From Escherichia phage SKA64, in the sequence record OM362897.1: 64,000 bases of DNA; one strand, given 5' to 3'. The position numbers and the translations under genes are program-made. Position 1 is the stretch's first letter. The number at the start of each line of letters is the position of its first letter. Below the pieces are notes generated by a model, which was not told where the DNA came from, did not search any database, and was given only the letters and a program-made list of their open reading frames with translations. This document shows positions 14,288-59,961 of the stretch, piece after piece.

Positions 14288-14529
14288 TCCGCTATTAACG
14301 TCAAACCAAGTGCATCGTTAAAACGCTCAACATTTGAGTATAGGTATGGAGGGGTTATTTGCTCTAAAATTTGTGCTGCTTCCACTTGGTGCTCTATGTT
14401 TTGAGAAGTTCGGGCATAAACTAAGACACCCATTTTATTCAAAATAAAAACAGAATCAGACCCATCCAGCTTATCAACGGCTGCATACATTTTAGTCATA
14501 TCTTCTCCTGGATTACCATTCAGCAACAA
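14281..14529 (-). CDS. hypothetical protein
   Basis: ORF track. Confidence 0.5.
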   Translation of the reverse strand: MLLNGNPGEDMTKMYAAVDKLDGSDSVFILNKMGVLVYARTSQNIEHQVEAAQILEQITPPYLYSNVERFNDALGLTLIAEW

Positions 14530-14728
14530 GACTAGGATTCATAGCAAAAGCTTTGAAAGTTGTTATATCATGACTAACATTAAAACTAACACCTTTTACT
14601 TTCTCTAGTATTTGAACTTTCGTCTCTCCGTCCCACGGTAGGATGATAACACCATCTTCTGTGATCAACCACCAATGGTTCTCTCCATCTCGTGAATCTT
14701 TTGCTTTGTATAGAAAATTGGAACTCAT
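14513..14728 (-). CDS. hypothetical protein
   Basis: ORF track; GGAGGAAGA RBS. Confidence 0.5.
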   Translation of the reverse strand: MSSNFLYKAKDSRDGENHWWLITEDGVIILPWDGETKVQILEKVKGVSFNVSHDITTFKAFAMNPSLVAEW

Positions 14729-14929
14729 TCTTCCTCCTGTTCGGTATTATTCACTTGTGAGACACAATGTAACACAAGCTTTGTGAGTTTGTCAAGGATC
14801 TAATTACATTCTACAGAAGAAGAGGGTTAATAACTATAGGAATAGTCTTACTATAGGTGCAATACTAGTTAAGAGTTAGATTGATAGGTAAGATTTATCT
14901 TAAACAGATAATTGATAGGTGAATCAGCA

Positions 14930-14995
14930 TTGACTTTTTCAAAAAAATATGGTACCCTAAACATATGTTTACGAGCGATAGCGAGTAGTAGATTT
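14930..14995 (+). repeat. conserved about 65 bp element, copy 1
   Basis: TTGACTTTTTCAAAAAAATATGGTACCCTAAAC, 12 nt variable, GAGCGATAGCGAGTA; near-identical copy at 50073-50138. Confidence 0.45.
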
Positions 14996-15088
14996 CTATA
15001 TAATAATGTTTCATGTTACTCACGATAGTGAGGTATGAAACGTAAGTGAAGGTAGATAAACTATGATCATCTATCTACCATCTATTAA

Positions 15089-15298
15089 TCAATATAGATC
15101 TAATGTTAGACTAACAGTTATCCAACAAACAATAGCAGTCCATATAACAAGTAATGATCTACAAACTACATCCCATTCAAATACATTGTATGTTAACCAT
15201 TCTCCCATCACAACAGAAGAACCCAACCAACATCCAACAACAACTATAATCCAATAAAAGAATCCTACAGTAGAGTATACAGCAAAAGCTTTTAACAT
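15089..15298 (-). CDS. small hydrophobic membrane protein
   Basis: ORF track; GGAGGAAAG RBS; antisense + ORF 15063..15257 judged spurious. Confidence 0.45.
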   Translation of the reverse strand: MLKAFAVYSTVGFFYWIIVVVGCWLGSSVVMGEWLTYNVFEWDVVCRSLLVIWTAIVCWITVSLTLDLY

Positions 15299-28164: not shown

Positions 28165-28891
28165 GATAATCTCCTCTCATCGTTAGCCATCTTTCATGGC
28201 AATCATCAATCACCAACATCATACGATCAATCTTAGGGAATTACAATCGAATTATCATAGGGGATTCCTATCAATTATCCCATATATACCGATTATTTTT
28301 GACACCCCACTCTTGTATAAAAAGTAACCCAAAATATCTACGGGGAGAGATTATTTCGGGACACCCTGTTTCATGGCAATCATGGCAAGAATATCTAATA
28401 GAATCAATATCATATGGCAAAAATCATGGCGCATACGTAAGAAGTGCTTAACGCGAATTTTCGGGCCGTCAGGTCCACGCAGCGACAATTCCCAAATATC
28501 ATGAGAATGAGAATAATTATCATTCGTATTCAATGACTTATGCAAGGCTTATGCCAACGTAGCGACAAGGTGGGCCACTTGATTATAAATCACACAAACA
28601 CTTATTTATCAATGGTTTGGCAACCTCATCATATGACGGAACAATGTCAACTGATCCCGCTCATGACAAGCAGACTATTATTTATATGAGAATGATTATT
28701 ATTTAAACGTTTATTAGCATAAAAACTAAAATAAATCAAGAATTTTCTGATTTTATTTACGTTTAAGAGAAGATGCTCAACATATCGCTACGCGATAGTA
28801 TTCGCCCCCGAAAGATTAGCCTTTATTTTCTTGTATGTTTATACGCTATGTGCACACTATGCAACCTGTCGCTATTCGCTCATGTTGCTAC

Positions 28892-29167
28892 GTGCTAATA
28901 CTTCACCGTGCTAATGATCTTTGAGCGATAGCGATTATTTCATCTTGTAATTACCACAATGATTATTGTTATTGCGCTAATGTTATGATCTTGGTAATTA
29001 CATATAATGCTAATAATAAGCCAGCGCAATAAGTGTAAGCGTATTACGCTTGCAATTATTGCAAGCTACGCAGTAACAAGAAATAACCATCACCGATGGT
29101 TATGATTGTTGGGGTGTAGTTGGCTTATTATTAGCTCGCTATGTGTCCGGCATAGCGTGCTAATGAT
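28892..29167. repeat. iteron-like direct repeats (C)GTGCTAATGAT plus palindromes
   Basis: GTGCTAAT-type copies at about 28892, 28908, 28974, 29008, 29157; palindromes AAGCGTAtTACGCTT (about 29037-29051), TTGCAATtATTGCAA (29050-29064), AACCATCaccGATGGTT (29085-29101). Confidence 0.5.
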
Positions 29168-29684
29168 GACTCTGTGAATGATTCGTTTTGTAATGATTTC
29201 ATTTAGTCACTATTATGGCAATAGTTATTATTTTAATGGTTTCGTTTGTTATTGTTCGTTAGTTGGTTGTTTTGTCGTGTTATCGTTATCTTGCTTAGTA
29301 TTCATCATGGTTTGATTGTTTGTTGTTATCAATCATCTTGCTATTATTCCTTTGATTATGATTAGTTTGCTTATTGTTTTATGTTGTTTGTTGGTTAGTT
29401 GTTGCGAACTATTATCAACATTATAGTTATGCACTTATATTGCATAGATAAACATGGATAGATGATAATGGTTATCATTGCACTAGAAAGGAGGTAAAAG
29501 GGTGTTTTTGATGGTTTGTTGTTGGTTGTTGATCGATTTTAACCGCTTTAAATGGCTCTCTAACAGCCTGTTACCCTGGGAGGTATGGTTATTCATTTAA
29601 TGGTTGATTAGCTCGATACCGCGATCTATTCAGTTTTGTTCTGTGTCGGTTTTTCATAGGCGGAATCTATCAACATTATTCAGG

Positions 29685-29720
29685 CAAAAAGAAAGGGCGC
29701 TTAGTGCGCCCCTTGTTTTG
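29685..29720. terminator. bidirectional terminator
   Basis: GGGCGCttagtGCGCCC hairpin flanked by A-run and T-run; same hairpin recurs at about 30260 and 36052. Confidence 0.6.
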
Positions 29721-29727
29721 TTGTCAA

Positions 29728-30147
29728 TTATAACGCTTCATAGATTGAGTAGATCCGGTTCGCCAGGTCATTACGAAAGCGGAATTTTTCATCACGTTTA
29801 ATCATCAGATCCTTAAAACCGCATTCTTTCAAGGCTTCATTAACTTTACTGCGGCATACTTTCATATTGTCCTGCGCGTCACCAATAAACTTATTGCTAT
29901 GATGCATTGCTTTGATCTCTTCCTCTAATACCAGGGCAACTACACGGACCGGATCAAGCTGATATGCGGTAACATCCATGCGGCATTGTAAACGGCTTTT
30001 AACATCGTTTACCGGATATACTGCAACCTCTTCCCCGTCAACGTTCACGATAACCAATTTACCATCGATTTCGAAGCCTTTGGCGGCGCTACCGTGACAA
30101 AAAGCGTTATCGAAGGAGTAAGCTGGATTATTTGATTTAATGTTCAT
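29728..30147 (-). CDS. hypothetical protein
   Basis: ORF track; AAGGACAACATC RBS. Confidence 0.55.
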   Translation of the reverse strand: MNIKSNNPAYSFDNAFCHGSAAKGFEIDGKLVIVNVDGEEVAVYPVNDVKSRLQCRMDVTAYQLDPVRVVALVLEEEIKAMHHSNKFIGDAQDNMKVCRSKVNEALKECGFKDLMIKRDEKFRFRNDLANRIYSIYEAL

Positions 30148-49551: not shown

Positions 49552-49760
49552 GTGGATGGATTAAAGTATCTGGTACCGAGAATGTTCCTATCGGAGAGTG
49601 GCTTGTAATCATGGCAAACGGCAAGAAGGGATTCTGTGAAGTTAACAAAACACGCAATGGCACGATAGCTGTTATCAATGGTCATTTTTATTTTGACTTG
49701 GCACCTGTGATCGCATACCATGCACTACCAACATATGAAGAGGAGATTAACAATGGCTAA
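49548..49760 (+). CDS. hypothetical protein
   Basis: ORF track. Confidence 0.5.
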   Translation: MSGWIKVSGTENVPIGEWLVIMANGKKGFCEVNKTRNGTIAVINGHFYFDLAPVIAYHALPTYEEEINNG

Positions 49761-50076
49761 CAAAGAACCACACGTATATACTGCACTGGTAAAGCACTTG
49801 AACAAAGAACGTAACAGGATCATTGCAGATTATCGTAAATTTAAACGTAGTAGTCTAAATCGTAAATACATGCCACATGCAGCTTTTGACGCTACACGTG
49901 CAGTATTTCGTGCAAAGATTGCGGAAATGGATAATCTGCTTAAGCTTGCACGATTATCTATTCAGGCATCCAAAGTAACAGGGGTCACTCACTTCTTTGA
50001 CTTCGATACTAAAGCACTATATGCACCAGAAGCAGGTGAACAATTGATTTATCTACTTACCAAAAATAAGTGTTGA
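49753..50076 (+). CDS. hypothetical basic protein
   Basis: ATG 49753 after AGGAG preferred over track start 49720. Confidence 0.5.
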   Translation: MANKEPHVYTALVKHLNKERNRIIADYRKFKRSSLNRKYMPHAAFDATRAVFRAKIAEMDNLLKLARLSIQASKVTGVTHFFDFDTKALYAPEAGEQLIYLLTKNKC

Positions 50077-50138
50077 CTTTTTTCAAAAAATATGCTACCC
50101 TAACCCCGAAGGGTCGAGCGATAGCGAGTATAGATTAT
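50073..50138 (+). repeat. conserved about 65 bp element, copy 2
   Basis: TTGACTTTTTTCAAAAAATATGCTACCCTAAC, 12 nt variable (ccccgaagggtc hairpin), GAGCGATAGCGAGTA; same spacing as copy 1. Confidence 0.45.
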
Positions 50139-50245
50139 GTAATAGATTAATCTCTATCGTTAGATGTTCGAAGAATAGAGATTTAAGTACTTGTTCTTAT
50201 CGGTAGATGATCGTAAGATCAAGAACAATAATAGGAGAGTATGTT

Positions 50246-50443
50246 ATGTTAGTCAGTGAAATACTACCTGACTCTAATGGTAATCAGATCACTGTTGATT
50301 GGTTTCCTGGTACTGGTACACTAGATCTAACTGCTGAATGGTCTGGTGATATTTATGGAGAAGGTGTATTATCATTGTCTACAGAACAAATGATCATCCT
50401 TCGTGACTTCTTAATTAGTTTAGATCTAGGAGAAAACAAATGA
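50246..50443 (+). CDS. hypothetical protein
   Basis: ATG 50246 after AGGAGAG preferred over track start 50207. Confidence 0.5.
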   Translation: MLVSEILPDSNGNQITVDWFPGTGTLDLTAEWSGDIYGEGVLSLSTEQMIILRDFLISLDLGENK

Positions 50444-59494: not shown

Positions 59495-59961
59495 ATTTTG
59501 CAGGATATGAACCTGTAGATCTTATTAATGGCGAGGGAGTTAGGTGCTCCCTCTGGGTTAGTGGTTGTAGCCACGGTTGTCGTGGCTGTTTTAACCAAAA
59601 AGCCTGGTCTTATTCTTATGGGAAACCGTTCACTCACGAAAATGTAGAGCAAGTTTTAAAAGATTTGTCAAGACCGTTTGTAAAAGGTTTAACAATTTTA
59701 GGAGGAGAGCCATTAGATCCACAGAATATTTACAATGTTAAAAACCTTATAGAAAAGGTTAGAGACGTTTATGGGTCAAGCAAAGATATAATGGTGTATA
59801 CAGGGTATACTTTTGAGGAAGTGCCTTTGTATATTAAAAATCTTGTTGACATTATTGTAGACGGAAAGTATGAAATAAACAATCCAACTACAAAACCTTT
59901 CAGAGGGTCAGATAATCAAAGATTATGGACCAAAACGGCAAGTGGTTGGCAATCAGATTAA
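59491..59961 (+). CDS. nrdG: anaerobic RNR activating protein NrdG (radical SAM)
   Basis: TTGA overlap with nrdD stop; CSHGCRGC C-x3-C-x2-C cluster; 156 aa. Confidence 0.8.
   Translation: MNFAGYEPVDLINGEGVRCSLWVSGCSHGCRGCFNQKAWSYSYGKPFTHENVEQVLKDLSRPFVKGLTILGGEPLDPQNIYNVKNLIEKVRDVYGSSKDIMVYTGYTFEEVPLYIKNLVDIIVDGKYEINNPTTKPFRGSDNQRLWTKTASGWQSD

Follow-up and report, generated by a model that had tools for sequence, protein, structure and literature searches.

A three-copy promoter-plus-hairpin module in phAPEC8-like phages and its possible role as a non-template-strand initiation signal

What is the function of a short element that is found twice, 35 kb apart, on the same strand of Escherichia phage SKA64? 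The DNA analysed here is a stretch of 64,000 nucleotides from sequence record OM362897.1 (hereafter the window), and the element lies at positions 14930-14995 (copy 1) and 50073-50138 (copy 2). A first-pass annotation had proposed that it may be a promoter or operator module with a regulator site, or a site-specific recognition sequence. We describe it as a composite of a promoter and a hairpin, here called the module, which is a real three-copy feature of these genomes, conserved across the subfamily of the phage, with relatives in islands and with a hairpin common to plasmid initiation regions. As to its function, judging from sequence we give a probability of roughly 40% to the reading that transcription from the module exposes a hairpin in the non-template strand, which would be a single-strand initiation or primosome-loading signal.

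The window is ~99% identical to the phAPEC8-like phages (genus Phapecoctavirus, subfamily Stephanstirmvirinae), E. coli myoviruses of ~150 kb, and its orientation is the reverse of that of the annotated relative ASO2A (MZ726793). Both copies of the duplicated element are real, lie on the + strand and have the same spacing and orientation, with 42 nt from TTGACT to the box in each. In a pairwise alignment the promoter part is near-identical, with the T/A runs shifted by one base and a G/C difference at a single position, and it is followed by a 12-nt inverted repeat that is wholly different between the copies and then by 15 identical bases (GAGCGATAGCGAGTA). The flanks of the two copies are unrelated. 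The parts are the following.

14930-14935, + strand: -35-like hexamer TTGACT of copy 1 (site A), 5/6 to TTGACA; TTGACT, TTTACT or TTGATT across five lineages
14950-14958, + strand: TGG and the -10-like hexamer TACCCT of copy 1, after a 17-nt spacer; 3/6 to TATAAT, with -12T, -11A and -7T present
14964-14965, + strand: predicted transcription start of copy 1 (T-1/A+1), at the 7th base past TACCCT
14958-14971, + strand: short inverted repeat TAAACATATGTTTA of copy 1, spanning the predicted start; P=0.11 against shuffles
14972-14985, + strand: box CGAGCGATAGCGAG of copy 1, the core of the hairpin
14969-14988, + strand: box hairpin of copy 1, TTA-C-GA-GC-GATA-GC-GA-G-TAG; 30.1 bits with the hairpin model
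14975-14982, + strand: mini-hairpin motif GCGATAGC of copy 1; Tm 71.0 °C as listed in PMC13037366
50073-50078, + strand: -35-like hexamer TTGACT of copy 2 (site B), overlapping the stop TGA of the open reading frame (ORF) 49720-50076
50093-50101, + strand: TGC and TACCCT of copy 2, after a 17-nt spacer
50107-50108, + strand: predicted transcription start of copy 2 (C-1/G+1)
50103-50114, + strand: inverted repeat ACCCCGAAGGGT of copy 2 (ACCC-CGAA-GGGT), spanning the predicted start; P=0.018 against shuffles
50115-50128, + strand: box CGAGCGATAGCGAG of copy 2, with the core hairpin only and flanks unpaired; 29.0 bits

The suggestion that the element includes a promoter is well supported by comparison. 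A metagenome scan brought the set to 30 distinct variants; 20 variants, from the islands and at least five lineages of phages, were aligned for the promoter. The -35 hexamer is TTGACT in 15 of these, TTTACT in three, TTGACA in one and TTGATT in one, and the spacer, whose sequence is variable, has 17 bp in 13 and 18 bp in seven. TG at -15/-14, TACCCT and an A directly after it are present in 20/20; this invariance is partly by construction in the scan-derived variants, which were chosen by patterns fixing TTGACT, TG, TACCCTA and CGAGCG (or GAGCG...AGCGAG), and the same invariants are found in the 10 BLAST-derived variants, which are free of pattern constraint. Hexamers that are kept while the spacer drifts are the signature of a sigma-70 promoter, and the reading of TTGACT-N17/18-TGn-TACCCT as a host-type sigma-70 extended -10 promoter is well supported. 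Moreover, positions 6 and 7 past TACCCT are pyrimidine-purine in most variants, at the expected start. The element is missing from the output of the built-in consensus promoter scan, as TACCCT agrees with TATAAT at only 3/6 positions; the TGn extension makes up for such a -10, and given this extension and the conservation pattern the miss is not counted against the promoter. Transcription from the module promoters is a prediction from their sequence.

The second part of the module, the box, has the consensus CGAGC-G(N)NA-GCGAG over the 30 variants and is the tip of a hairpin, with C-G, G·A, A·G, G-C and C-G pairs around the loop as its invariant part. These are 11 invariant bases amid unalignable flanks, and the 3' half of the box, left free by the strict search pattern (TTGACT, TGn, TACCCTA, CGAGCG), is present in 41/43 of its matches. 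When the sequences are anchored on the box, three bases on each side pair with compensatory changes, the three flank pairs changing on both sides: flank pair 1 is A-T in 12/30 and C-G in 14/30, and flank pair 3 is paired in 29/30 with five pair types. Paired cells amount to 89.5-90.8%, compared with 78% in shuffles (0/500) and 26-52% in slid registers, pairing counts that are somewhat inflated as alignment and structure come from the same sequences. The covariation signal is nevertheless taken as real on the strength of the slid controls and of the plasmid variants (below). Flank pairs 1-3 include 23 G·T and no A·C, which identifies the + strand as the folding strand. Fold stability near site A is alike on both strands (z about -3.3 to -3.4), so the strand cannot be assigned from it. 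In a single member, the metagenome contig L108 (~4x coverage), an invariant base is changed (CGAGCGAAGCGAT, with T for the last G); this may reflect an error of sequencing or a natural variant that has lost the pair.

This fold bears on the proposal of a regulator site at the core GAGCGATAGCGA. A duplex operator could consist of the direct repeat AGCGA-N-AGCGA past the promoter, with the palindrome as a second operator; positions +8 to +25 are a classic repressor position, the box is indeed a direct repeat, and its invariance suggests protein recognition. However, the spacing of the half-sites varies by one base with loops of 3 or 4 nt, the flanks covary and the wobbles occur on one strand only, which together point to a folded single strand and not to a duplex operator. 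The palindromes also differ at each site and are absent at the third copy of the module (site C, below), and phages and islands carry the module without a common regulator. An operator of this kind is quite unlikely. The variable palindromic insert itself stands only in part: an inverted repeat is present at both window copies, while its enrichment is modest (individual P values of 0.01-0.2 against shuffles; a hand-computed Fisher combination over nine site A and B variants of ~2e-4) and it is missing at the third site. It was rejected as a conserved hairpin for this modest enrichment and for its absence at site C. As it spans the predicted start it cannot sit inside the module's own transcript, which holds for all inverted repeats that include -6 to -1 (also site C of PD06 and site B of Tr1).

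The box hairpin has a close match among known DNA structures. Its loops are GAA in 12 variants, GATA in eight, GCA in five, GTAA in two and GAAA, GGGA and GAAT in one each, and the core fits the mini-hairpin rule GCGNAGC/GCGNNAGC in 29/30 variants with variation only at N. The exception, GCGAATGC with its GAAT loop, is a documented stable variant (Tm 70.0 °C) in the review of mini-hairpin DNA by Kimoto and Hirao (PMC13037366). The review puts most loops of the present set, GCA and GGGA aside, at a Tm of 70-76.5 °C; the stability of the GCA triloop is the subject of PMC3201870. It also describes a sheared G·A pair, nuclease resistance and poor binding by single-strand binding protein (SSB), and places mini-hairpins at the primase origins of G4, St-1 and alpha3, at RSF1010 ssiA and at the promoters of the N4 virion RNA polymerase. 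The phage core is like the mini-hairpin DNA of Hirao and colleagues in obeying the rule exactly, with variation at N positions only. Unlike it, the phage hairpin continues beyond the core into a tandem G·A without variation, a C-G pair and further pairs that covary, and its coupling to a promoter of the sigma-70 type, in a phage with double-stranded DNA, is strict. The strand-specific wobble and the published stability fit a hairpin in single-stranded DNA, whose extrusion in vivo is presumed.

Such parallels could also mean that the hairpin is read by an enzyme of the phage's own, similar to the N4 virion RNA polymerase or to a primase, the sigma-70-like part being incidental. The N4 promoters are mini-hairpins of the GCGGAGC or GAA-loop type, and G4-type primase origins carry GCGAAAGC (PMC13037366). 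Nevertheless the N4 stems have 5-7 Watson-Crick pairs without the tandem G·A of the module stem, the ASO2A products that were viewed include no RNA polymerase, the islands combine the same module with a primase of another kind, and the conservation of -35, TGn and -10 is too specific for such a role. This explanation can hardly be upheld.

The position of the copies relative to genes was assessed with transcription blocks defined from the ORF map of the window and the ASO2A annotation, which lists 55 terminators as against 9 promoters. There are four blocks: an early block of small genes (37 kb, - strand of the window, 11.6-48.6 kb, with a 1.2-kb non-coding gap at 28.5-29.7 kb), a replication block (+ strand of the window, from 48.7 kb), a nucleotide-metabolism block and a block of tRNA and structural genes. 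Copy 1 is located in a 360-bp gap with the - strand genes 14513-14728 and 15089-15298 on either side and points against them; this antisense placement, noticed already in the first-pass annotation, is kept in five lineages. Copy 2 overlaps the stop codon (50074-50076) of the + strand ORF 49720-50076 and is ahead of + strand genes, as had been stated, the ATG of the next one (50246) being 138 nt from the predicted start. The copies at site B, at site C and in the islands face downstream genes.

A search for further copies, which had been suggested as a check, gave a third one outside the window, and thus three per genome in total; likewise, the covariance model of the hairpin finds only three promoter-linked copies in the whole ~150-kb genome. 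With BLAST the element was found in 133 phage records across the subfamily, and the loci, read individually, fall into three positional classes (A, B and C), each of which keeps its place from genus to genus. Site A is antisense in the early block of Phapecoctavirus, phiWec179-like phages, Justusliebigvirus PD06, Klebsiella phages FKP3/KP13-26 and Citrobacter phage Tr1. Site B, which is copy 2 of the window, lies within the replication block. Site C is at a divergent junction and heads the block of tRNA, terminase and structural genes (59,870-59,930 in ASO2A MZ726793; 24870-24935 in the sequence L063), with the sequence TTGACT-N18-TGC-TACCCT...TTAA-CGAGCGCAGCGAG-TTAA. It is followed by an AT tract of ~80 bp and then by a second sigma-70-like promoter. 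The lowest-GC 60-nt stretch in the 45 kb of L063 (GC 0.10) is found at +180 from site C, in a tract from +120 to +240, and the AT-rich tract after site C has a GC of 0.03-0.17 in other genera.

The strict pattern also recovers the module in chromosomal contigs of Scandinavium and Buttiauxella and in one IMG/VR contig. These module-bearing islands are satellite-like, with integrases, endonuclease VII, a D5/DUF5906 primase-helicase and an XRE regulator, and the phage and the islands have zero proteins in common. After the island modules there is a conserved non-coding region of ~170 nt with multiple hairpins (L035 4748-4920; L071 5165-5354, - strand; L075 2774-2963, - strand), which precedes the endonuclease VII or primase genes and has 4 compensatory pairs among 3 sequences. 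This layout is reminiscent of the leader-RNA control of P4-type elements. The island leader had no match in complete E. coli genomes. Rfam gave no match in the window or the islands at the gathering threshold and chance-level matches only in a permissive search (E up to 10), and a scan for tRNA and tmRNA found nothing relevant.

The distribution allows two further proposals to be weighed. The module might be an ordinary strong promoter with a leader conserved by descent or recombination, as in a mobile cassette, or else a site-specific recombination site. It is portable, being found in phages and islands, and repeated promoter-stem-loop (PeSL) cassettes exist in large myoviruses; those of T4-type phages are likewise repeated composites of a sigma-70-like promoter and a stem-loop. 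In PeSL cassettes, however, the stem-loop precedes the promoter and works as a terminator, and the cassettes, which have no invariant box, number in the dozens in hyperplastic regions (indel hot-spots), whereas the module has its hairpin downstream and three copies at conserved positions. Descent or recombination would also have to account for 11 invariant bases in unalignable flanks and for structural covariation. No recombinase is associated with the module in the phage and all three sites keep their positions across genera, which argues against the recombination site put forward in the first-pass annotation. Both versions are very unlikely.

A loose pattern (TACCCTA...GAGCG...AGCGAG) gave 56 loci in IMG/VR, a number of the same order as the rough chance expectation. 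The unrelated families L007, L012, L016, L021, L028 and L045 among them were for this reason left out of the evidence, though some score 18-25 bits with the hairpin model: L007 is an inverted repeat, perhaps marine, with its own TAGAAT -10, and L012 adjoins a tRNA. In L007 (2018-2167) and ~25 similar IMG/VR contigs TAGAATGAATCTATACCCTATCCCCCCCAACGAGCGAAGCGAGTGGG is present as two inverted copies (21.6 and 14.8 bits) where divergent genes meet. They belong to unrelated viruses, perhaps marine, and are either convergent or related to the module.

The hairpin also occurs in plasmid initiation regions. A literature string search found GAGCGCAGCGAG in common vectors, and the exact box strings only in vector or primer sequences; the ColE1-type box sequence then proved to be present in 3,644 plasmid records. 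One natural ColE1-type plasmid has CGAGCGCAGCGAG ~130 nt beyond the RNA/DNA switch, on the displaced strand, which has the sense of RNA II (13.5 bits, E=0.015); this sequence is identical to the box of site C over the 13/13 bases of the core. Pol I extension in ColE1 exposes the lagging-strand n' primosome assembly site (pas, or ssiA) downstream of the switch, which is retained in pUC-type vectors (PMC3167613). An element of ~75 nt around the ColE1 box recurs independently in IncX1, IncX4 and IncF plasmids, in IncX1 at ~700 bp from the replication initiator gene. The IncX/IncF element covaries, with its closing pair changed from C-G to G-C and its flanks re-paired, and IncX4 has further hairpins of the same class, C-GA-GC-GCAA-GC-GA-G and T-GA-GC-GTCA-GC-GA-A. 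The likeness to the region of the ColE1/pMB1 ssiA covers the identical 13-nt core CGAGCG(C/T)AGCGAG and a strand displaced by transcription-primed synthesis; together with the IncX/IncF element it covers the build of the hairpin (a closing pair, the tandem G·A, the GC/CG pairs and the GNA loop), covarying closing pairs and enterobacterial hosts. Unlike the phage module, the plasmid element has no promoter fusion, lies ~130 nt beyond the RNA/DNA switch and has outer stems and an AAGCGG motif. A further sequence, GTAGCGATAGCGGAG, is found ~150 nt beyond the ColE1 box on the opposite strand of a natural ColE1-type plasmid and shares AGCGATAGCG with the window.

In IncX4 record LC663732 (L082 1036-1553) four hairpins of the same class, TCC-GCGTAAGC-GGA, CGAGCGCAAGCGAG, TGAGCGTCAGCGAA and CAG-GAGCGTAGCGA-CTG, are on one strand upstream of the ColE1-ssiA-like element, and this cluster suggests that single-strand DNA signals of this kind form a larger family in enterobacterial plasmids. 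In phiX174 the best match of the hairpin model, CAAGCGAAGCGCG (ACC-AA-GC-GAA-GC-GC-GGT), lies on the viral strand at 2349-2373, in the 110-nt F-G intergenic region. We take this region to be the one that holds the n' (PriA) recognition site.

How could a promoter and such a hairpin act together? In the reading that we favour RNA polymerase would fire from the module promoter, and the non-template strand, displaced in a bubble or an R-loop, would snap into a hairpin that is poorly bound by SSB. This hairpin would be the signal for loading a primosome or a helicase-primase, and a replication fork or lagging-strand priming would start co-directionally with transcription. Since phages and islands share the module and no proteins, a host partner such as PriA is indicated, and a host PriA-type primosome is the simplest guess; any loaded protein is only deduced. 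Site C is the best candidate for a true origin because the lowest-GC tract of 45 kb follows it and it heads the tRNA and structural block, and sites A and B would be additional loading sites. Transcription-activated origins are known in T4 oriF and oriG (a promoter and an unwinding element), in ColE1 RNA II and in the R-loop- and PriA-dependent stable DNA replication. By analogy the order of promoter, structure and unwinding tract at site C fits these origins, where a promoter is likewise followed by a structure-prone or AT-rich region, the tract at +120 to +240 in the case of site C. Sites A and B, unlike such origins, are without an AT tract, and the T4 origins, unlike the module, have a MotA-dependent middle promoter and no mini-hairpin. 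Forks diverging from site C would put all three hairpins on the lagging-strand template, which is weak evidence.

The same hairpin could work in the transcript, and this is the main competitor. It would then be a stem-loop of the 5' leader, bound by RNA polymerase or by a host or phage protein, for terminator read-through, transcript stability or regulatory marking, and at site A a small non-coding RNA would be made. The covarying hairpin lies wholly past the predicted +1 at a near-fixed distance, starting 0-6 nt from it, a point in favour of RNA and against the displaced DNA strand. In addition, the copies at sites B and C and in the islands face long gene blocks, and many of the terminators annotated in ASO2A fall inside the blocks headed by sites B and C. 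The downstream regions are structured (z=-3.3 at site A, both strands alike; the compensatory pairs of the islands), and three of the loops (GAAA, GTAA and GGGA) belong to the GNRA tetraloops. In RNA, too, tandem G·A flanked as C-GA-G is stable. Leader hairpins that reprogram RNA polymerase are well known, namely lambda nut boxB, HK022 put, the LoaP leader hairpin and HIV TAR, and the module is like them in being a small conserved stem-loop right past a promoter, in few copies, before long operons with internal terminators.

The module differs from these hairpins in that its conservation is lowest in the loop, which has 3 nt in many cases; neither a boxA nor a cognate protein was found, and one of the copies is antisense. 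RNA-binding proteins usually recognise the loop, and a protein-read RNA element would be expected to conserve it; here the loop bases are the only variable positions, loops of 3 nt occur in 17/30 variants, and the loops GATA and GAAT fall outside GNRA. The oligonucleotide r(GCGAAAGC) melts at 39 °C compared with 76.5 °C as DNA (PMC13037366). The identical 13-mer is part of a plasmid initiation region that acts as single-stranded DNA. Moreover, there is no Rfam match and no boxA, site A is antisense in every lineage, and the flanks of copy 2 are unpaired. No NusG/RfaH-like ORF was found in the phage or the islands with phmmer, a search which small N-like proteins could escape. The loop rule, the contrast in stability between DNA and RNA and the identity with the plasmid element fit DNA over RNA, and we consider the leader stem-loop possible yet somewhat unlikely.

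A third way of using the strand would be that of ops (GGCGGTAGCGTG), a promoter-proximal element acting in Enterobacteriaceae, whose non-template strand forms the mini-hairpin GCGGTAGC. An ops-like hairpin would recruit a NusG-family or other elongation factor and make a termination-resistant polymerase for the long downstream operons. The window box AGCGATAGCGAG matches ops at 9/12 positions, including C3, G4, T6, A7 and G8, and site A keeps GATA, with its T, in all five lineages. The likeness to ops/RfaH (and to plasmid PrfaH) thus extends to a promoter-proximal non-template mini-hairpin, to the Enterobacteriaceae and to this identity of the window copies. On the other hand, the bases read by RfaH (G5, T6) are not conserved, as G5 is absent in the window copies and 17/30 loops have no T6, and the pause base T11 is A. 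The folded unit of 20-26 nt is also longer than the bubble of 10-11 nt quoted in PMC5995543, and the search for RfaH/NusG-like ORFs was negative as already said. We find this mechanism unlikely.

Several points weigh against the preferred reading of a transcription-exposed DNA hairpin, besides the position of the hairpin past +1. A literature search found no transcriptome or transcription start site data for this phage family, and on its promoters and transcripts only generic predictions. The phage encodes its own primase/helicase and DNA polymerase, and the need for a host primosome is not obvious. A fork started at site A would run head-on into early transcription. The AT tract is met only at site C and at site A of FKP3, not at the two window copies. 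As to the plasmids, the placing of the shared hairpin within a functional ColE1 primosome assembly site is deduced from PMC3167613 and the known structure of the vectors, the outer stems and AAGCGG motif of the plasmid element are absent from the phage module, and the match in phiX174 is weak (8.2 bits, E=0.65). The motif could also be shared by convergence on the most stable small hairpin of DNA, with no protein partner in common. A broader version of the preferred reading is that this portable unit of promoter and primosome-loading mini-hairpin provides the subfamily's initiation or fork-loading sites through host PriA-type machinery, in the manner of ColE1 plasmids and phiX174, that the islands carry it likewise before their replication genes, and that it represents a new class of transcription-fired origin common to phages, islands and plasmids; this extension is rather doubtful at present.

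The first-pass annotation had also reported the core in the large non-coding locus between the two copies, and here only the 12-nt match was confirmed.

28923-28934, + strand: core-only match GAGCGATAGCGA, an arm of a local inverted repeat (28868-28882 with 28922-28934)

The sequence occurs three times in the window (14973, 28923, 50116) against 0.10 expected, a number reached in 0/100 shuffles. Nevertheless the core at 28923 scores 12.6 bits (E=0.24) compared with 30.1 and 29.0 bits for copies 1 and 2, and as it has no closing C-G pair, flanking stem or promoter it was ruled out as a copy of the module. We estimate its chance probability at ~0.01, and a distant tie through the mini-hairpin motif is possible. 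The locus (28500-29760) is a separate 1.2-kb non-coding, repeat-rich and AT-rich region within the early block. It holds the lowest-GC 60-nt stretch of the entire window (GC 0.13 at 28676), four ATGAGAATAATTATCATT-like repeats, two of CGTGCTAATGAT, several inverted repeats and recurrent CGCTAT/ATAGCG, and may have a regulatory or replication function of its own.

The surroundings of the two window copies contain other features.

14766-14795, - strand: divergent sigma-70-like promoter TTGACA-18-TACATT with TG, for gene 14513-14728, back-to-back with copy 1
15006-15043, + strand: hairpin downstream of copy 1, GTTTCATG...ATGAAAC enclosing CTCAC-GATA-GTGAG; 121-nt + strand fold, z=-3.33
15051-15079, no strand assigned: hairpin GGTAGATA...TATCTACC, a - strand terminator in the ASO2A annotation
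50187-50242, + strand: leader hairpin of copy 2, just 5' of the ribosome binding site (RBS) AGGAGAG and the ATG at 50246; a "terminator" in ASO2A

A related ...CATG/CATG... hairpin is also found after site A of other genera and in the islands, and the hairpin at 15051-15079 is a possible end of a short + strand transcript from copy 1. The 39-aa - strand ORF across copy 1 (14895-15014; phAPEC8_0059 or ASO2A_058 in relatives) is probably spurious. The 64-aa + strand ORF 15063-15257 downstream of it also looks spurious, and the - strand ORF 15089-15298 is a plausible small membrane protein. Just 5' of copy 1, ATTGATAGGT occurs twice (14880-14889 and 14911-14920) around TTATCT...AGATAA. At the same position of site A (-55 to -38) other genera have CCTAT(C/T)...(G/A)ATAGG palindromes. 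This region (14880-14920 in the window) could mark where the divergent unit ends, or be an operator particular to site A. The site B leaders of L023 and L068 have a large hairpin directly before the RBS (~+60 to +125 past TACCCT), as in the window. In L023 and KP2025 it is followed by TTTTCTTTT, which is intrinsic-terminator-like, and the window copy is without a U-run; the leader hairpin may be an attenuator that differs between genera. In addition, the site B leader of phiWec179 (L004 1560-1600) contains a second TACCCT and its complement (TTACCCTCCCGTTAGGGTAGAGGGTAG), with which a hairpin is possible ~35 nt past the box.

The module is absent from Rfam and its description was not found in the literature searched. 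The phAPEC8/phi92-like phages (Stephanstirmvirinae) are widely isolated for phage therapy while their replication origins and regulatory signals are undescribed, and the module provides three precise, testable candidate sites per genome. One 13-nt hairpin links large lytic phages, satellite-like islands, ColE1, IncX and IncF plasmids and phiX174, and this suggests that they have a host partner in common or have converged on the most stable small fold of DNA. The presence in islands hints at satellites copying the control signals of their helper phages. If the hairpin acts as DNA, this would be a natural promoter built to expose a signal in the non-template strand; if it acts as RNA, it would be a new leader motif. 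In both cases the invariant atypical -10 (TACCCT) and the box form a compact part that could serve to time expression or replication during infection.

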